This document shows positions 41,944 to 49,371 of a stretch of 64,000 nucleotides of DNA, one piece after another (position 1 is the first letter of the stretch; each line of letters opens with the position of its first letter). The notes under the pieces were generated by a model that had not been told where the DNA came from, made no database searches, and saw only the letters and a program-made list of their open reading frames with translations. The stretch is from Alphaproteobacteria bacterium (GTDB lineage Bacteria > Pseudomonadota > Alphaproteobacteria > UBA828). The stretch spans positions 960,001 to 1,024,000 of the forward strand of contig OZ243972.1 of assembly GCA_965214705.1 (NCBI GenBank). The letters are read 5' to 3'. Position numbers and translations under genes: made by a program.

Positions 41944-42963
41944 CTAACGGAAGTGCGGGAGCACGTGGTCGGCGTAGGCCGCGACGATCTGCTCCTCGCC
42001 GCCGTTGGTAAGGTAGATGTTGAACTGGGTCACGCCGGCCGCCTCCAGCGCACGGATCTTCTCCACATGGGCCTCGGCCGGGCCGACCACGCAGAAGTCC
42101 TCGGTGATCTCGGGCGAGACGTAGGCACTGTTGTCTGACTCCAGCGCGGTGTGCTGGCGATAGTCGTAGCCCTCGTCGGCGCCCACACCCTCGCGCTCCG
42201 CAATGTAGGTGGTGAGGCTCTTCGGCACGAGGTCGGTGCCGGCGCCGTGGTGCTTCACGATGTCGGCCACGTGGTTGCCCACCAGCGCCGGGAACCACTT
42301 GGTCTGGGCGATCCCGGCCTCGCGGTCGCCGACCCAGACCGGTGCGCAGGCCATGACGCGGTAGTCCGCCATGTCGCGGCCTTCGGCGCGGCCGGCGGCG
42401 CGCGCCTGGTCCCCCATCCACTGGCAGAGGCCGACGTCGCCGAGCTGCACGATCAGCCCGTCGCCGACGCGGCCAGCCGCCGCCAGCGCACGCGGCCCGT
42501 AGGCCGCGACCCAGACCGGCATCTCGTAGCCGCCGGTCCAGTCGAACTGCACCGGCTCCGGCACGCCCTCGTAGCTCACCGCCTCGCCCCGCACCAGCGC
42601 CTTCATGGCGTGGCAGAACTCCTCCAGACGTGCCACCGTCGCCGGCCGCTTGCCGATCGCCCGCACGGCGCTGTCGCCGCGCCCCACGCCCATGTCGAAG
42701 CGGCCGTCCGACTGCACCGCCATCGCCCCGAACAGGCTCGCGGCCACCGACCATTCGCGGGTCATCGGGTTGGTGACGCAGGGGCCGAAGCGCAGCCGCT
42801 GTGTGTGGTCGATGGCGACCGCCATCTGTGGGTAAAGATCGCGCCACAGCGCGTGGCTGTCGAAGAACCAAGCGTAGTCGAAACCCGCCGCCTCGGCCTG
42901 CCTGCAGATGGCGACGATGCGATCCTTTTCGAGGTCGCCGCGAAAGGTGATGGCGAATTCCAT
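41944..42963 (-). CDS. LLM-class F420-dependent oxidoreductase (TIGR03842-like)
   Basis: AEAAGFDYAWFFDSH.LW, GPCVTNP.TR, GVGRGDSA, VAAYGPRAL, FPALVGNHVAD, GYDY..H; next to npdG. Confidence 0.85.
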   Translation of the reverse strand: MEFAITFRGDLEKDRIVAICRQAEAAGFDYAWFFDSHALWRDLYPQMAVAIDHTQRLRFGPCVTNPMTREWSVAASLFGAMAVQSDGRFDMGVGRGDSAVRAIGKRPATVARLEEFCHAMKALVRGEAVSYEGVPEPVQFDWTGGYEMPVWVAAYGPRALAAAGRVGDGLIVQLGDVGLCQWMGDQARAAGRAEGRDMADYRVMACAPVWVGDREAGIAQTKWFPALVGNHVADIVKHHGAGTDLVPKSLTTYIAEREGVGADEGYDYRQHTALESDNSAYVSPEITEDFCVVGPAEAHVEKIRALEAAGVTQFNIYLTNGGEEQIVAAYADHVLPHFR

Positions 42964-42974
42964 GATTGTCTCCT

Positions 42975-43643
42975 TTACCCGGCTTCCGGCCAGATCTGCA
43001 CGCCCGCGTGCTTGAAGCCCGTCGCCTTCGACATATTGAGGCGGATCAGCAGCGGTGTCAGCGCCTCAATGCAGCGCGCGCTCTCGGCCGGGCCGCAGTT
43101 GTAGGCGCGGGCACCGATGGTCTCGACCAAGTCCATCACCGCGCGCTTCGCCTCCAGGTCATCGCCGCAGACGAGGATGTCGCAGTTGATCGGCTGATCA
43201 AGTGCGGCAAGCACGTGGGCGGAGACGTTGTGGAGAGCGCCCACCACGGCGACGCCCTCGCCCAGCATCGCCTGCGCCGCCTCGGTCGCCGAGCCCTCGG
43301 GTGGCATCGCTGCCTTGCGGGGATTGCCGTCGGCGAGCGGCACGGCCATGTCAACCAGGATCTTGCCTTGCAACGCCTCGGTAAGCCCCGCGAGGGTCGC
43401 CTGGTGCGCGCTCCACGGTACCGCCAGCACGACCACGCGCTCGGCCCGCGCCACCGCGTCGGCGTTGGCGGCGCCTTCGATCGACCCCGGTGCATCAGGC
43501 ACGCCGGCTCTTAGATCGACGGCGATCTCCGCCGCGCGGGCGGCATCGCGCGAGCCGACCACGACGTCGATGCCGGCGAGTGCGCAGCGCTGCGCCAGCC
43601 CGCGGCCCTGAGGTCCGGTGCCTCCGATCACGGCGATTGCCAT
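42975..43643 (-). CDS. npdG: NADPH-dependent F420 reductase
   Basis: [50 protein letters not shown]. Confidence 0.9.
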
Positions 43644-43675: not shown

Positions 43676-44200
43676 CTACGCGTCGTAGGCGACGAGGGAG
43701 GTGATCGGCAGGTCGAGGCGTTGACGCCCGCCGAGGAAGCTCAGCTCAATGATGAAGGCCGCCGCCACCACCTCGGCACCCACTTGGCGCAGCAGCGCAT
43801 GCGACGCGGCCGCCGTGCCCCCGGTTGCAAGCAGATCATCGACCAGGACAACCCGCTGACCCGGCGCGACGGCGTCGGCCTGCACCTCGACCTGATCGGT
43901 GCCGTACTCGAGCGCGTATTCATACGCCACGGTCTCGCCCGGCAGCTTGCCCTTCTTGCGTACCATGATGAAGCCACACCCGAGTGCGTGCGCCACCGGC
44001 GCCGCGACCAGAAAGCCGCGGGATTCGATCCCTGCGAGAAGATCGGGCTTGTGACTGCCGACCACATCGACGAGACGCTGCACCGTCTCGCCCCAGGCCC
44101 GCGCGTGGGCGAGCAGGGTCGAGATGTCATAAAAGAGGATGCCTGGCTTGGGAAAGTCAGGAATTTCGCGGATGTGGTCGCGCAGGTCGAACGCGGACAT
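43676..44200 (-). CDS. apt: Adenine phosphoribosyltransferase
   Basis: [45 protein letters not shown]. Confidence 0.96.
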
Positions 44201-44241
44201 GGCTGCCCCCAATCAGCGCAAGAGGGCTTTGTCCTCCGCGA

Positions 44242-44631
44242 TCACTCGGCGCCGGTGGCTTCCTTGAGATAGGCGATCAGGTTGTCGCGGTCCTTTTCCT
44301 TCCTGACCCCCTTGAACGCCATCTTGTTCTTCGGAATGTAACCCTTGGGATCGGCAATATAGGCTCTGATCGTCTCCTCGTCCCAGACGATTGCCGCGTC
44401 CTTCATCGCGTCCGAGTACTTCTTGAAGCCTTCGGCCGTGCCCGAGGTGCGGCCGAAGACGCCGTGGAGGTTCGGGCCCACCTTGTGCTTCCCGCCTTCC
44501 TTGACGGTGTGGCACACCTTGCACTTCTTGAAGACCTTCTTGCCCTTCTTCACATCAGCGGCAATGGCGGAGGCGCTTGCCGCCATCATGAAGGTGGCGA
44601 GGGCAACGGCGAGGACGTGTCGTGCGCGCAC
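44242..44631 (-). CDS. Class I cytochrome c (cytochrome c2-like), exported
   Basis: Signal peptide, [38 protein letters not shown] (axial Met). GTG at 44631 after AAGGAG. Confidence 0.93.
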
Positions 44632-44764
44632 GGGTATCTCCTTAGGTCTGGTCCCGATCATGCGGTGAACGCGCGAACATAGGCCGGGTTCGCACCCGCG
44701 ATCAAGGAGGCCATTCGGCCGGTGGCGCGCCGCTTCCGCGGAGCAGCGCGCCGCCGGCGGATGG

Positions 44765-46147
44765 CTACTGGACCCGGTACTCCTCGTCGAGGAAGAAGCG
44801 GCTGTCATAGTCCTCGACGCCAAGGTGGCACTCAGCGCAGAAGACGACGTTCTTGGCGCCCTTGCCGCCGGTCGTGCCGATCGTCCGGCCGCTCGGCATG
44901 ATCAGCGTGTAGCGCCAGTCGCCGGTATCGGCGTCGAAGCCGGCTTCCATCTTCTCCATCAGGAAGAGCGGCCCGGCGCCGATCTTGCCGTTGGGTTTGA
45001 CGGTGAAGCTGTCCTTGGCCAGAACGGTTCCGACGGGCGCTGGCCCCGCCTCTTCGAACTGGCTGTAATTGTCGGCGCCGATGTCGTTGGCGTAGTTGTT
45101 GACGTAGCGCGCGCCGTGGGTATCGGAGACGTAGGGTTGGGCCGCGACGTTCCGCCAATTCTGGTAGGACGCCGCCCACTGATTGCCCGACTTGGCGTAT
45201 CCCTCGGCCATGACCGCACTGATGCAGGCGTAGGCGTCTCGGGCCTCGTCTGCGGTCAACTCGACCTCTTCGCCGGCCGCGCAGGGGTTGCATGGATTGC
45301 AGGCGCCGCACGGGCCGCAAGGGTTCGCCGCACACGGGTTGCAGGGGTTGCACGGTCCACAGGGGTCGCAGGGATTGGCCGCTGCGCACGGATTGCAGGG
45401 GTTGCAAGGGCCGCATGGGTTGCACGGCTCGCACGGGCTGCAGGGACCACAGGGGCTGCAGGCTGCGGCGCAAGGGTTGCAAGGCCCACAAGGGTTGCAG
45501 GCTGCAGCACAGGGATTGCACGGATTACAGGGAGCGCACGGTCCGCAAGGGCTACAAGCACTCGCGCAGGGATTGCATGGACCGCAAGGAGCACATGGCC
45601 CGCAGGGGCTGCCAGCGGCAGCGAGGCGCGGAACCACGCAGTCCGAACTGACCGCAGCGCCCGCCGCGCACGGGTTGCAGGCGCCGCACGGCCCGCAGGC
45701 GCCCGCACAGGGATTGCAAGGGTTGCACGGTCCGCAAGGGCCGCAGGCGCCCGCACAGGGGTTACAGGGCCCACAGGGGTTGCATGCAGCTGCGCAGGGG
45801 TTGCACGGATCACATGGATTACACGGTCCGCAAGCACCACAAGCGGCGTCACAGGGGTTGCAAGGATTACACGGCCCACACGCAGACGCGCAGGGATTGC
45901 ACGGTTCGCACGGACTGCATGGTCCGCGAGGTCCGCATACCGCCGCGCACGGGTTGCACGGACTGCATGGTCCGCACGGGTTGCAGGAGGCGAAGAGCAG
46001 CACTCCCGGATCCTGATGCTGCGGGGTCGCCGCCGGGCTTTCGCCGGTGGATGTACCGGCCGTTGCGTGGCCGCCACTGGTGGCGACCGCGAGCCCGATG
46101 ACCACAGGGACCACCGTTCCGGCAAGCAAGGTGTTCGAGCGTGGCAT
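44765..46147 (-). CDS. Exported cytochrome P460-family protein with a long N-terminal Cys-X-Pro repeat region
   Basis: ATG at 46147 after AGGGAGG, then a signal-like N-terminus and about 235 aa of CxP repeats. C-terminal domain has [36 protein letters not shown] and a C-terminal CAECH. Confidence 0.85.
45281..45985 (-). repeat. Coding tandem repeat, (Cys-X-Pro)n in two blocks
   Basis: 9-bp periodic TGY-NNN-CCN units; two blocks separated by [18 protein letters not shown]. Confidence 0.95.
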
Positions 46148-46279
46148 GTCGGGCCTCCCTTGATGGCGTGATGGCGGCACTCTGAGCGAATTGTCGGCGA
46201 GCGCATGGTGCGGGGCAAACCCCTTCGACTCAAATTTTTGTGATTCCCGTGCCGGGTGAGCGGCAGCTAGGCTGCTGCA

Positions 46280-47155
46280 ATGGTTTTCTCCCGCGCACTT
46301 CTTGCGGTCTGTCTCGCGACCTGTGGCCTGGTCCTCGGGGGCGCTTCATATGCTGGTTCGGTGCCAGTTCCAGTCCTGGCGGAGGTCCCGGCCGGCCCCT
46401 TCATCGCGGGCTCCGACGCGGCCGAGCGGGAATACGCCTACCAGCTCGACGAGGCGGCCTACGGCCACTCCCGAACGCGGGAGCGCGGCTGGTACGATCG
46501 CGAGCGCCCGCGCGGAACCAAGTCACTGGACGGCTTCTTCATCATGCGCACGCTGATCACCAATGCCCAGTACGCGGCGTTCGTGGATGCCACGGGCCAC
46601 CGCGTGCCCGATGTCGATCCCGAGACCTGGCGCGGCTACAGGCTGATCCACCCTTACGAGCGCACCCGCCGCCACGCGTGGACGGAGGGAGTTCCGCCGC
46701 CTGGGCGCGAAAACCATCCCGTGGTCATGGTCTCGCACGACGACGCCAATGCCTACGCGGCCTGGCTCTCGGCCGAGACCGGGCGCGCCTGGCGTCTCCC
46801 CACCGAGCTGGAATGGGAGAAGGCCGCACGCGGCACGGACGGCCGCAACTTCCCCTGGGGCGATACGTTCGACCCAGCGCTGCTCAACAGCCACGATGCC
46901 GGTCCCTTCGACACGCTGCCGGTCGGGAGCTTTCCTGCCGGTGCAAGCCTTTACGGCCTCCTCGATGCGGCAGGCATGGTCTTCGAGTGGACCGCCTCGC
47001 CCGGCAATACGGGGCGCTTTCTGGTGAAGGGCGGATCGTGGGACGACAGCGGCTGCGGCATCTGCCGCCCTGCGGCACGGCACGGCCGGCCGGCGGACAT
47101 CAAGCACATCCTCGTCGGCTTCCGCCTCGTCGTCGATCCGGGCGCGGGGGGTTAG
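46280..47155 (+). CDS. Formylglycine-generating enzyme (SUMF1/FGE-sulfatase) family protein, probably exported
   Basis: Signal-like N-terminus, [57 protein letters not shown]. Confidence 0.9.
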
Positions 47156-47237
47156 CCTCCTCGGTCTGGCAAGAGCAAGCCCGCGACACTATCTTTTCCT
47201 GGCGGCACAGCCAGCGAACGGGCGACAGAGCGGCAGA

Positions 47238-47999
47238 ATGGCCCAGGCTTCAGCGGCGAAGAATGAGCGGCAGGAGGAGACCCGCCACCTCGACATGGCG
47301 ACACAGCCGGTGAAGCGGCTGCGCATGATGCTCGCCGCCGGCGAGGAGGTGCAGGAGGTCGAGCGGGTGCTCGGCAGAACCGGCGATAATGTGGTGAGCG
47401 AGCTGCTGCGCGGGCGCGGGACGTTCTACGAGTGGGACCATTACCCGAAAGGGGACGTCTTCGACGGTCAGAGCCACTCCCAGTATTTCTACCACGCCCA
47501 TCCCGGCGGCTTCCGGGATACCGAGCACGGGCATTTCCACACCTTCGTGCGCGCCAAGGGGATGCCGCGCGGCATGAAGCCCGTGCGCCGCAAGAAGCGC
47601 GACAAGTGGCCCATGGGTGACAAAGCGCTCACCCACGTCATCGCCATCTCGATGGGGTCGAAGGGTCAGCCTCTCAGGCTTTTCACCACCAACCGCTGGG
47701 TCACCGGCGAGACCTGGTATCGCGCGGATGACGTGGCAAAGGTGATCGGCCGCTTCGTCATCGACCACGCCCGCCCGTCATGGCCGACCAACCGCTGGGT
47801 CGGCGCCATGATCCGCCTCTTCTGGCCGCAGATCATCCTGCTGGTCAAGGCGCGTGATCAGGTGATCGAGAACTGGGCTGCCCAGAATCCGAAGCAGGAT
47901 ACCCTCGAAGATCGCCGCCTCGAGGTCGTCTCGCAGGCCGAGGTGGATATCGAGGCCCAGATCGCCGCAGTCAAGGCGGCCCTCGCCGCGAGAACCTGA
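47238..47999 (+). CDS. His-rich conserved protein, DUF6969-like
   Basis: WDHYPKGDVFD, QYFYHAH, EHGHFHTF, THVIAISM, LFTTNRWVTGETW, LEDRRLEV. Family recalled from motifs, not verified by search. Confidence 0.75.
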   Translation: MAQASAAKNERQEETRHLDMATQPVKRLRMMLAAGEEVQEVERVLGRTGDNVVSELLRGRGTFYEWDHYPKGDVFDGQSHSQYFYHAHPGGFRDTEHGHFHTFVRAKGMPRGMKPVRRKKRDKWPMGDKALTHVIAISMGSKGQPLRLFTTNRWVTGETWYRADDVAKVIGRFVIDHARPSWPTNRWVGAMIRLFWPQIILLVKARDQVIENWAAQNPKQDTLEDRRLEVVSQAEVDIEAQIAAVKAALAART

Positions 48000-48041
48000 G
48001 GCGCAGTCGGCCCGCCGCTGTCACGGCTCCCGTACCGCAAC

Positions 48042-48069
48042 AAAGAACGCCGCCTCTCCCGAGGCGGCG
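48042..48069 (-). terminator. Rho-independent terminator of the small Cys-rich peptide gene
   Basis: CGCCGCCTC-N4-GAGGCGGCG stem followed on the minus strand by TTCTTT. Confidence 0.75.
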
Positions 48070-48100
48070 CCCTTGGATACCGTTGTCGTTACTCTCAAAC

Positions 48101-48415
48101 TTACTCGGCAGCACACGGATCGCACGGGTTGCAAGCCGCGCACGGGTCGCACGGGTTGCAGGCCGCGCACGGGTCGCACGGATTGCAGGCATCCGCGACA
48201 ACGATGCGCTCGTCCAAGGAAGATTCGCACGGATTGCAACCGCCGCATGGGTTGCAAGCCTCGCACGGGTTACAGGCCCCGCACGGGTTGCACGGATCCT
48301 CGTGCGAGTCCGCAACGACGATCGGCTGCTCCCCAGCGGACACGGCCGACGGCGCAAGAGCGGCGCCGGCCGCCATGGTAACGATACTCACGGCGACCAC
48401 TGTTTCCTTGATCAT
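48101..48415 (-). CDS. Small exported Cys-rich peptide with CNPC/CDPC repeats (104 aa, 17 Cys)
   Basis: Strong GAGGAGGAG RBS, Sec-type signal ending AVSA, two IVVAD-led Cys blocks, its own terminator. Confidence 0.85.
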
Positions 48416-48585
48416 TTTCGTAGTCTCCTCCTCGCAGACGCGAATTTAGTTGGTTTGAATTGGGGCTTCGCGCCGCCTCGGCGGACTGTCGAACCATGCG
48501 AAGCCCATGTCATTGTGGTGTATATCGGCAGTGCGCAAAAGTGCTTTCGTTTCAATGACGCGAATTTGAACGCCGGAGACGACCG

Positions 48586-49371
48586 ATGCCGGTCGCGAGC
48601 AGCGAAGATTACGCGAGGCTGGCGGCCACCGCGCGGCGATTGGCGCTGGAGGCCGGGCGGACTATCATGGTCTTCTACCGCGAAGGCACGCTGGTCGAGA
48701 CCAAGGCCGATTCCACACCCGTGACCGAGGCGGACCGCGCCGCAGACGGTCTCATCGTCACAGGCTTGCAGGCCGCGACCCCCGACATCCCCGTGATTTC
48801 CGAGGAGAGCACAAGCACAGGCCCGCCACCCGCCGGCGGGCGCTTCTGGCTGGTCGATCCGCTCGACGGGACACGGGAGTTCATCGCACGCACCAACGAG
48901 TTCACGGTCAATATCGCCTTGATCGAGGATGGCCGACCGGTGCTCGGCGTACTCCACGCCCCGGTCCAGGGCGAGACCTATCTCGCCGACGGGCAGGGCG
49001 GCGCCGTGCGCATCGTTGGCGACGGGGCGCCGCAGCCGATAGGCGCGCGGCCGGTGCCCGGTGAGGGCCCGGCCGTGATCGCCAGCCGCTCTCACCGCGA
49101 TGCCGAGACCGATGCGTTCATCGCGGGTCTGGGGCCTGCGCGGATCGAGAGCGCAGGCAGCGCCCTCAAGTTCGGCCTGCTCGCGCGGGGCGCGGCCGAT
49201 GTGTACCCACGCTTCGGCCGCACCATGGAGTGGGACACCGCCGCCGGCCACACAATCCTCTCCGCCGCTGGCGGCCATGTCCGCGACCTGAACGGGCGCG
49301 AGTTGCGCTATGGCAAGGCGGGGTTCGTGAATCCGCCCTTCGTGGCCTGCGGCGTGGATGGGGCCCGATGA
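48586..49371 (+). CDS. cysQ: 3'(2'),5'-bisphosphate nucleotidase
   Basis: KADSTPVTEAD, ISEE, FWLVDPLDGTREF, EFTVNIAL, SRSH, GSALKF, TMEWDTAAG. Confidence 0.93.
   Translation: MPVASSEDYARLAATARRLALEAGRTIMVFYREGTLVETKADSTPVTEADRAADGLIVTGLQAATPDIPVISEESTSTGPPPAGGRFWLVDPLDGTREFIARTNEFTVNIALIEDGRPVLGVLHAPVQGETYLADGQGGAVRIVGDGAPQPIGARPVPGEGPAVIASRSHRDAETDAFIAGLGPARIESAGSALKFGLLARGAADVYPRFGRTMEWDTAAGHTILSAAGGHVRDLNGRELRYGKAGFVNPPFVACGVDGAR

Follow-up and report, generated by a model that had tools for sequence, protein, structure and literature searches.

We analyzed a 64-kb window of contig OZ243972.1 from an Alphaproteobacteria bacterium with a 7.9-Mb genome (the window is the whole stretch of DNA studied, and positions below are counted within it). 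Between the housekeeping genes apt and cysQ, it contains two genes for exported proteins built on dense cysteine repeats of the Asn-Pro-Cys (NPC) type, one of them ending in a c-type heme domain, together with genes for a DUF6969 protein, an FGE-like protein, and a cytochrome c. We consider it quite probable that these genes reflect a real module, with NPC-repeat heme proteins as its core and DUF6969 as their partner. We regard the module as new in its composition, although it is assembled in part from known domains, and its function is putative. The five genes are the following.

44242..44661, minus strand: class I cytochrome c with a signal peptide (PF00034)
44765..46147, minus strand: NPC/CxxC-repeat protein with a P460/c'-beta heme domain, 460 amino acids (aa) (Pfam and motif counts)
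46280..47155, plus strand: FGE-sulfatase-family protein, periplasmic, 291 aa, with a signal peptide (Pfam)
47238..47999, plus strand: DUF6969 protein, cytoplasmic (PF22308)
48101..48415, minus strand: small NPC/CxxC-repeat precursor peptide, 104 aa (no family match)

A previous reading of this DNA, made without database searches (here, the sequence-only reading), had described five genes between apt and cysQ, four of them encoding products with signal-peptide-like N termini. All five were found at those coordinates, and a hydrophobic N terminus is indeed present in four of the five proteins (best 15-aa hydropathy of 2.1 to 2.5), the exception being DUF6969 (0.28). It had also described a rare Cys-x-Pro repeat shared by two of the genes. 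The repeat is rare and does occur in both, but what is conserved in it is more aptly written Asn-Pro-Cys (or CxxC) than Cys-x-Pro. The long protein contains 71 Cys, 51 C-x-P, 54 overlapping C-x-x-C, and 26 NPC motifs, and the small peptide contains 17, 10, 15, and 7, respectively; the number of C-x-P-x-R sites is 0 in both. When the 7.9-Mb genome was scanned in six frames, period-3 runs of at least five Cys were found only in these two open reading frames (ORFs), which lie 3 kb apart, and three consecutive C-x-P units were found only in the long ORF and in one unrelated, single 9-residue run. The confinement of period-3 Cys runs to two neighboring ORFs confirms the observation, which is far from what chance would give. 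According to Tandem Repeats Finder, the repeats are degenerate at the DNA level (60 to 89% matches), so recent slippage is unlikely.

The gene for the long protein, which we call repeat-P460, starts with the ATG at 46147, preceded by a GGGAGG ribosome-binding site. Its product consists of an N-terminal signal or anchor, two Cys-repeat arms (residues ∼50 to 160 and 185 to 290), and a C-terminal P460/c'-beta heme c domain, the arms being separated by a conserved C-V-V-P-R-L segment that contains Cys170. It is the sole P460 match in the genome (Pfam Cytochrome_P460, PF16694; E = 3e-8, 34.5 bits against a cutoff of 27, residues 338 to 460 of the 471-aa ORF). The CxxCH motif, at residue 437 of 460, is present in 119 of 120 homologs, and Lys378 and Lys399 are invariant in the P460-type domain; in cytochrome P460 proper, as distinct from c'-beta, a Lys side chain is cross-linked to the heme. 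In the AlphaFold 2 (AF2) model, residues 292 to 460 form a confident domain (predicted local distance difference test [pLDDT] of ∼80 to 97), residues 161 to 180 form a strand and a helix (pLDDT of 77 to 93), and the repeat arms are disordered (pLDDT below 50). Foldseek matched the domain with a probability of 1.00 to cytochrome c'-beta (7ead; E = 5.6e-6, TMt of 0.66, root-mean-square deviation of 3.8 over 133 columns) and also retrieved P460 (6hiu; E = 8e-6).

The repeats are a common companion of this domain, since at least three NPC motifs were present in 104 of its 120 nearest homologs and the central motif was present in 82 of 120. All the repeat-P460 relatives that we inspected share a conserved signal or anchor, repeats of the NPC type (or a CGAC variant), and a heme domain; the number of repeats and the charge of the spacers vary widely, and a C-x-V-P-R-L mid-segment occurs in most long forms. 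In databases, these relatives are named "hypothetical protein" or "cytochrome P460 family protein." Cys170 and Cys308, the latter in the first helix of the domain, are jointly present in 79 of 103 NPC-bearing homologs and jointly absent from 15 of 16 NPC-less ones. The central segment, modeled with confidence beside the heme domain, might dock on it, in which case the repeats would form two domain-anchored loops. Class-3 adenylate cyclases account for about 14 of the 120 nearest homologs; they carry the domain at their C terminus and lack the repeats, which suggests that the domain can sense small ligands. These cyclases (P0094 to P0120) are ∼418 aa long, without NPC repeats, and are homologous to positions 44765 to 45200 of the window. 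At two loci of relatives (L043:9315-10289 and L044:9247-10017), there is a second P460-like paralog, which has a signal peptide but no repeats. It is found upstream of cytochrome c, beyond DUF6969, such that each locus has both a repeat-bearing and a plain gene. At one locus only (L038:1527-1900, minus strand), the NPC-P460 gene is followed closely by the coding sequence of a rhodanese domain (E = 5e-11), noticed because a stop-to-stop ORF of another frame extends into it.

The small peptide gene has a GGAGG site ∼9 nucleotides upstream of its ATG and encodes a hyperconserved N-terminal leader or signal of 27 residues followed by a variable number of CNPC-type repeats. The N-terminal hydropathies of the two repeat proteins are 2.27 and 2.49. 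Neither Pfam nor NCBIfam contains a family for the peptide. At 25 loci, we found orthologs of 60 to 130 aa that have almost the same leader and differ in repeat number; leader identity is nearly complete within the genus and ∼70 to 90% within the family. When 18 loci were compared with the window, the leader had a median identity of 1.00, the FGE N terminus one of 0.46, and the remainder of the FGE protein one of 0.88. Three genomes of the same genus (G003, G013, and G018) have extra NPC-pattern loci far from DUF6969, for example, G018:C1:2114606 and G003:C2:2977314.

We used DUF6969 as the anchor for comparing loci and genomes. It was found in 37 of 61 related genomes and in none of the 14 controls, and a species-level genome collection yielded 592 pattern matches, of which 581 were confirmed as DUF6969 relatives. 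The hosts are mostly Alphaproteobacteria (Azospirillum, Thalassospira, Terasakiella, Kiloniellales, and others) and include Betaproteobacteria (Sideroxydans, Sulfuritalea, and Polaromonas). For locus counts, we scored as NPC any ORF with at least three NPC motifs within 3.5 kb of DUF6969. Among 30 loci from relatives, taken with 1.5-kb flanks, 26 had an NPC ORF and 24 had an FGE-like gene directly upstream. Across 80 named loci, we counted 32 with NPC, 41 with FGE-like, 16 with a P460 domain, and 26 with cytochrome c; the corresponding numbers for the 53 loci flanked by 4 kb or more on each side were 24, 27, 13, and 21.

To compare whole genomes, NPC repeats were detected with a degenerate DNA pattern of three spaced NPC units, the reversed pattern serving as a control. 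The pattern was found in 33 of the 61 related genomes and its reversed form in none (0/61). Both DUF6969 and the NPC pattern were present in 32 genomes, as a rule no more than 3 kb apart, the NPC pattern alone in 1 (a genome that is 78% complete), DUF6969 alone in 5, and neither in 23. As the 61 genomes are kin, this two-by-two table cannot be read as a probability; the association nevertheless spans gene orders and classes. Outside the apt-cysQ setting, in other gene orders and classes, DUF6969 and NPC genes are still adjacent. Of 401 genomes sampled across the phylum, DUF6969 was present in 12, the NPC pattern in 29, the control pattern in 2, and DUF6969 together with the NPC pattern in 5. 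All 5 NPC-positive genomes outside f58, a family of small genomes, have DUF6969. Seven genomes had only DUF6969 by the strict pattern, and we inspected three of them: in two (L128 and L130), NPC-type ORFs adjoin DUF6969 and had been missed because of the pattern spacing, and in the third (L129), no NPC-type ORF was found within ∼7 kb of DUF6969. A DUF2336 protein (E = 7e-76; L103:8524-10053 and 34 others) follows DUF6969 on the same strand in 35 of the 80 loci; it is missing from the window, and we therefore treated it as lineage synteny. An unbiased clustering of neighboring ORFs was set aside, as its most recurrent "families" were off-frame shadows.

The association of the repeats with heme extends beyond P460. 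A collection of 5.8 billion proteins contained 117 longer proteins sharing repeats with the peptide, and 109 of these had a CxxCH motif; their precomputed Pfam domains were almost exclusively P460 or SoxA/TsdA/CCP. The heme domain is P460-like in Alphaproteobacteria and SoxA-type in other lineages. In f58 and at the betaproteobacterial loci, it is a SoxA/TsdA-type domain (PF21342, E values down to 2.7e-15) that is flanked by the repeats. The gene order in f58 is a small NPC peptide, then a repeat protein with the SoxA-like domain (11 of 12 loci), then a multiheme cytochrome of ∼400 aa (9 of 12). A profile built from 17 SoxA-type domains matched SoxA (1h31) with an E value of 5.1e-11 and TsdA with an E value of 0.08, and the invariant Cys of the SoxA-type NPC domain aligned with the Cys of the SoxA "MINAC" motif, which we take to be the heme-1 ligand Cys114. 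The Cys arrays are thus either small peptides or tethered to one of two unrelated c-heme domains, and this is the strongest functional clue that we obtained. Some f58 loci have other neighbors. Genes for a radical SAM DUF3641 protein and a Methyltransf_31 methyltransferase, presumably an arsS/arsM-like pair, lie directly upstream of the small NPC peptide at L114, L116, and L117, and CusA/CusB-type efflux (L118), an MIP channel (L120), and HupE/UreJ with DUF3240 (L113) were seen next to NPC genes elsewhere.

The DUF6969 protein matches PF22308 over its full length (E = 5.2e-84, 281 bits, positions 2 to 201 of 201). It has no signal peptide and is therefore considered cytoplasmic. Two fusions of ∼630 aa, in which DUF6969 is N-terminal to a long coiled coil, a transmembrane helix, and a bacterial SH3 domain, fit this location by their domain order; a tandem duplication of DUF6969 spans 497 aa (fusion and duplication identifiers P0141, P0184, and P0147). 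An alignment of 17 sequences, down to 49% identity, showed invariant H68, H86, H88, E96, H97, H99, H101, and H133, along with D73, D76, and others. The family is large, with 1230 cluster representatives at an E value of at most 0.001 and 387 at 1e-30. Its AF2 model is confident (pLDDT of 80.3, predicted template-modeling score of 0.83) and resembles no solved structure in our searches: the PDB sequence search gave no match at an E value of at most 1, Foldseek gave none at an E value of at most 0.001 (best, 0.52), the best Z score of VIA-align over 48,161 chains was 3.5, and a protein atlas search returned only DUF6969 clusters. Assignments of DUF6969 as cupin-like or helix-turn-helix were not supported by the fold searches.

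Modeling of a complex between DUF6969 and the peptide gave a score of 0.74, compared with 0.01 for the best control and 0.00 for the control in which DUF6969 was replaced and the peptide kept. In a calibration that is rough because it relied on our own alignments, this score was reached by 58 of 80 solved complexes and by 2 of 110 mismatched pairs. The modeled contacts join peptide residues 4 to 16 to DUF6969 residues 10 to 21, 198 to 217, and 227 to 251. The model supports the view that DUF6969 may bind the leader of the NPC precursors and makes it a candidate partner. Viewed as a putative precursor and maturase pair of the kind known from ribosomally synthesized and posttranslationally modified peptide systems, the peptide and DUF6969 show a conserved leader, a variable repeat number, and a modeled leader contact (one run of three scoring 0.00).

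The FGE-like protein matches the Pfam FGE-sulfatase family (PF03781, E = 5.4e-45), and no NCBIfam equivalog was reached at its cutoff. All 64 orthologs retain C259, C262, H146, H268, and H276, the two cysteines forming a C259-x-x-C262 pair in the C-terminal part, which we take to be the region of copper binding in canonical FGE. Canonical FGE is a copper enzyme, and its two catalytic, copper-binding cysteines have four residues between them. The CxxC pair, its putative counterpart, differs from this spacing. Among solved structures, ToxD is the closest in sequence (7spq, E = 5.8e-34), with true FGEs at ∼1e-15. In 24 of 30 and 41 of 80 loci, DUF6969 is immediately preceded by the FGE-like gene in the same orientation. 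However, among five genomes with NPC proteins and DUF6969 that we checked, no ortholog was found in four (G030, G035, G224, and G167); in the fifth (G047), it lies ∼2.5 kb away. The gene is missing beside the betaproteobacterial NPC loci. In f58, an FGE-family gene adjoins the NPC genes at 1 of 12 loci (32% identical, without the CxxC), and a second locus has one ∼5 kb away (29% identity); these genes (L114 and L121) belong to a different subtype. The cluster contains no sulfatase gene. As C-x-P-x-R sites are absent, no ortholog was found in four of the five genomes, and only 2 of 12 f58 loci have an FGE-family gene, of another subtype, we conclude that the FGE-like protein is a frequent accessory in Alphaproteobacteria that stands outside the core of the system. 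FGE as a general modifier of the C-x-P cysteines, a role suggested by the sequence-only reading, is not supported by these same observations or by the CxxC spacing. The wider proposal of that reading, an exported precursor beside a modifying enzyme, gains some support through DUF6969, which is modeled on the hyperconserved leader, and not through FGE. The notions in the sequence-only reading of a dedicated module and of Cys repeats coupled to heme are borne out, the former by co-occurrence at both the locus and the genome level and the latter by the recurrent fusion to two unrelated c-heme domains.

The cytochrome c gene most likely starts at 44661, and its product has a CxxCH motif and a signal peptide (PF00034, E = 1.8e-11; N-terminal hydropathy of 2.13). 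It is c550/c2-like, matching NCBIfam CycA c-550 with an E value of 3.6e-34, below the equivalog cutoff. In 26 of 80 loci, a cytochrome c gene occurs no more than 5 kb from DUF6969, and its position varies. The protein is a possible electron partner. It may plausibly belong to the module, or it may be a bystander that simply accompanies apt, next to which it stays in 4 of 5 relatives without DUF6969.

The surroundings of the five genes complete a row of seven consecutive ORFs (43676 to 49371: apt, cytochrome c, repeat-P460, FGE-like, DUF6969, peptide, and cysQ), in which the GC content at third codon positions (0.70 to 0.89) is consistent with the annotated reading frames. The two flanking genes and two noncoding elements are as follows.

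43676-44212, minus strand: apt, above the NCBIfam cutoff
Opposite flank from apt, the seven-ORF row ending at 49371: cysQ, above the NCBIfam cutoff
46230..46243, no strand: 14-bp element TCAAATTTTTGTGA, located between the divergent genes, ∼40 bp before the FGE-like gene
48048..48069, no strand: GC-rich inverted repeat, read by eye, where the DUF6969 and peptide genes converge

The 14-bp element is a candidate operator or promoter element. By eye, it recurs in 17 upstream regions (from the genus, the family, and one related metagenome-assembled genome), and it is kept at L029, where the upstream repeat-P460 gene is missing; a promoter scan did not flag it. The inverted repeat is a possible, weak candidate for a bidirectional terminator and was not among the hits of a terminator scan. 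For both scans, the counts were not above those in shuffled sequence. A single subthreshold Rfam match between 43500 and 49500 (flg-Rhizobiales, 26 bits against 55) was dismissed. In two metatranscriptome libraries, contigs 90 to 99% alike cover parts of all five genes (X1), and one 334-letter metatranscriptome contig (X2) covers the peptide gene alone; such matches show that relatives are present in RNA libraries and are no proof of transcription or operon structure. The X2 contig is 9 bases shorter at position 48165, corresponding to one repeat triplet unit fewer, which fits the variation in repeat number. The remaining genes of the window are of a housekeeping kind (valine catabolism, NAD kinase, MoaA, an F420-linked pair, TsaC, ComF, aspartate kinase, hisS, prfA, and prmC). 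The F420-linked pair, in what appears to be an alphaproteobacterium, lies directly upstream of apt (41944-43643, minus strand) and comprises a TIGR03842 LLM-class F420-dependent oxidoreductase (E = 6.6e-122) and npdG (E = 2e-60), an NADPH-dependent F420 reductase.

Regarding function, we tentatively favor, at somewhat less than an even chance, poly-thiol arms that would be served by a tethered heme, either as SoxAX serves SoxY or as a thiol redox store, with DUF6969 handling the precursors before export; a specific thiol-sulfur chemistry is, if anything, slightly more tentative. In this scheme, the exported Asn-Pro-Cys/CxxC arrays would be flexible poly-thiol arms, one tethered to heme and the other a free peptide. 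The heme domain would swap electrons with a periplasmic cytochrome c and would oxidize or reduce the cysteines of the repeats, or load them oxidatively with inorganic sulfur species. On the cytoplasmic side, DUF6969 would grip the precursor leader before Sec export and either modify the precursor via a putative His/Glu metal site or keep it competent for export. The periplasmic FGE-family protein, with its CxxC, would be a lineage-specific helper, acting as a thiol oxidoreductase or a copper enzyme. The closest precedent for such chemistry is the SoxA family, which conjugates thiosulfate oxidatively to another thiolate; with SoxAX, that thiolate is the SoxY arm Cys (PMC4423706). A more elaborate proposal, which we consider rather unlikely, is that DUF6969 is a new leader-guided cytoplasmic metalloenzyme with its own fold that would alter the Asn-Pro-Cys units of Sec-exported precursors and so give thiol or modified-thiol arms serving Cys-reactive c-type hemes (P460-like or SoxA-like) as substrates, carriers, or ligands.

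Several observations weigh against poly-thiol arms served by a tethered heme and DUF6969. Among the 53 well-flanked DUF6969 loci, 12 have none of the four partners, and 29 have no ORF with at least three NPC motifs nearby; one of these 29 (L094) has a CGAC-type repeat-P460 gene instead, and inspection of 24 NPC-less loci revealed no convincing other Cys-rich ORF. The 24 genomes of the 401-genome sample with the NPC pattern only are all in f58 and lack DUF6969, and the f58 spacers are rich in Met, His, and Lys (M-K runs and H beside NPC), which favors a role in metal handling. The heme domain of the window is P460-like and not SoxA-type, and no sox, rhodanese, or other sulfur gene was found in the 64-kb window. 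The adjacency of apt and cytochrome c was also seen in 4 of 5 DUF6969-negative relatives. As for the complex, the three runs scored 0.00, 0.76, and 0.74, the runs share at least 4% of their contacts, the pLDDT of the partner is 31 to 41, and a hydrophobic signal segment might dock nonspecifically. Finally, every chemical step is drawn from analogy, what was observed being gene content, co-occurrence, heme fusions, folds, leader conservation, and a passing complex model.

The main rival, unlikely in our view yet ahead of the other alternatives, is a periplasmic metal or metalloid buffer, in which the exported arrays would act like metallothioneins and soak up Cu(I), Ag, Cd, Hg, or As(III). The heme domain and cytochrome c would then set the redox state, and DUF6969 and the FGE-like protein would mature or load the arrays in a bufferin-like way. 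Such a function would suit the density of CxxC motifs (54 and 15, overlapping), the FGE-like protein with its invariant Cys pair (canonical FGE using copper), and the f58 loci, some of which have CusA/CusB-type, MIP, HupE/UreJ, or arsM/arsS-like neighbors and whose Met/His/Lys-rich spacers recall a composition typical of periplasmic Cu(I) sites. It would also have a precedent in bufferins, Sec-exported Cys peptides that are modified in the cytoplasm and buffer copper (PMC11626156). However, a tethered heme is present in 109 of the 117 repeat-bearing longer proteins, and one of the heme domains is SoxA-type, whose known chemistry is thiol-sulfur conjugation. No metal sponge known to us requires a covalent link to heme. 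Moreover, the window contains no metal-resistance or metal-sensing gene, the metal-related neighbors in f58 differ from locus to locus, and dense CxxC motifs in an oxidizing periplasm would be prone to disulfides unless kept reduced. We regard as improbable a system centered on FGE, in which the periplasmic FGE-like enzyme would oxidize the C-x-P cysteines of the repeats to formylglycine or cross-links. Its gene is upstream of DUF6969 and divergent from the repeat-P460 gene (24 of 30 and 41 of 80 loci), the enzyme is exported like the repeats and has its invariant C-terminal Cys pair, and the repeats offer 51 and 10 C-x-P motifs. Against this stand the absence of C-x-P-x-R (0 sites), the noncanonical CxxC in place of the four-residue spacing, the closer relationship to ToxD than to FGE, and the distribution described above, with no ortholog found in four genomes or beside the betaproteobacterial NPC loci and a single adjoining FGE-family gene, plus another ∼5 kb off, per 12 f58 loci.

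The handling of nitrogen oxides is about as improbable as the FGE-centered system. Here, the P460/c'-beta domain would bind or convert NO or hydroxylamine, with the thiols acting as an NO sink (S-nitrosothiols) or protecting the heme. The fold is that of P460/c'-beta, for which the entry titles of solved members indicate binding of NO and NH2OH, and the adenylate cyclases that end with close homologs of the domain suggest small-ligand sensing; yet the same repeats are fused elsewhere to a SoxA-type domain, which is not an NO-binding fold, and the window has no denitrification or nitrification gene. That the proteins are a structural material, a disulfide-cross-linked envelope matrix like that proposed for Cys-rich spore-coat proteins with NPC repeats, seems very improbable. 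AF2 gives the arms no fold of their own, and CdeC of the Clostridioides difficile exosporium is a self-assembling, Cys-rich protein with a 6-NPC repeat (PMC7677010). A matrix would leave unexplained the near-obligate heme fusion, the cytoplasmic partner modeled on the leader, and the cytochrome neighbors, and CdeC is unrelated in organism, location, and architecture. Least credible of all, and already disfavored, is the absence of any system, the genes being unrelated and merely held together by apt-cysQ synteny. The apt, cytochrome c, and cysQ flanks are housekeeping, apt and cytochrome c adjoin without the other genes, and the kin genomes are not independent samples; but DUF6969 and NPC genes are adjacent across gene orders and classes, the genome counts are 32/1/5/23, and the complex model passes its controls.

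We compared the module with characterized systems. In SoxAX, which acts with the SoxYZ carrier, and in TsdA, both Cys-ligated cytochromes of the SoxA family, a periplasmic c-type heme joins a sulfur compound to the Cys of a carrier arm and electrons pass to a cytochrome (PMC4423706). The betaproteobacterial and f58 NPC proteins resemble them in carrying a SoxA/TsdA-type domain with an aligned Cys. In contrast, the heme domain of the window is of the P460/c'-beta type in Pfam, and its repeat proteins match no Pfam or NCBIfam Sox family and have no SoxY or SoxZ fold. SoxY has a single C-terminal carrier Cys, whereas tens of Cys are tethered to a heme domain here, and DUF6969 and the FGE-like protein have no Sox counterpart. 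The resemblance to Sox lies in a possible way of working and not in membership. Bufferins (PMC11626156) share Cys-bearing precursors with a Sec signal, a cytoplasmic metalloenzyme and partner acting before export, a periplasmic product, and the possibility of large, Cys-rich precursors. They differ from the window cluster, which has no MNIO (DUF692), DUF2063, or DoxX gene and whose repeats are low complexity and predicted to be disordered, modification being putative here. To our knowledge, no bufferin is fused to heme. Cytochrome P460/c'-beta proteins have the same Pfam family, C-terminal CxxCH, and fold as the long protein, which has ∼290 extra N-terminal residues of Cys repeats; it also differs by the added Cys segment modeled beside the domain, by the helix Cys that covaries with the repeats, and by the lack of nitrification genes around the locus. 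The FGE-like protein has the FGE-sulfatase domain and the C-terminal invariant Cys pair in common with FGE, EgtB, PvdO, ToxD, and CalU17, but not the spacing (CxxC), a CxPxR site in its neighbors, or an NCBIfam equivalog, and its closest solved chain is ToxD. A literal Asn-Pro-Cys repeat in a Cys-rich protein is found in CdeC (PMC7677010). CdeC is a structural protein of a Gram-positive spore surface, with no heme, DUF6969, or signal-peptide logic, and homology is not shown.

The sequence-only reading knew of no characterized system with this composition, and a search of full-text literature, outside subscription journals and supplements, likewise found none. Within that literature, there was nothing on DUF6969, nothing relevant on the repeat strings, and nothing relevant combining P460, cysteine-rich, and formylglycine. 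NPC terms retrieved only CdeC and aquaporin-11, and "NPC repeat" retrieved CdeC only.

The module is compact, with four or five genes. If the proposed function is true, it would represent a widespread and unstudied bacterial thiol, sulfur, or metal chemistry outside the cytoplasm, in which tens of Cys are presented on a disordered, heme-tethered arm made with the help of DUF6969. It would provide a first role for DUF6969, a family of 1230 cluster representatives with no known fold or function, and would explain many "cytochrome P460 family" annotations unrelated to nitrification. It would also extend the idea of a SoxY-type carrier arm or of a bufferin-type periplasmic peptide to a new architecture. 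Should DUF6969 prove to be a leader-guided metalloenzyme, the NPC proteins would form a so far unrecognized class of redox or sulfur-carrier proteins of the periplasm, spread over at least three lineages of Proteobacteria.

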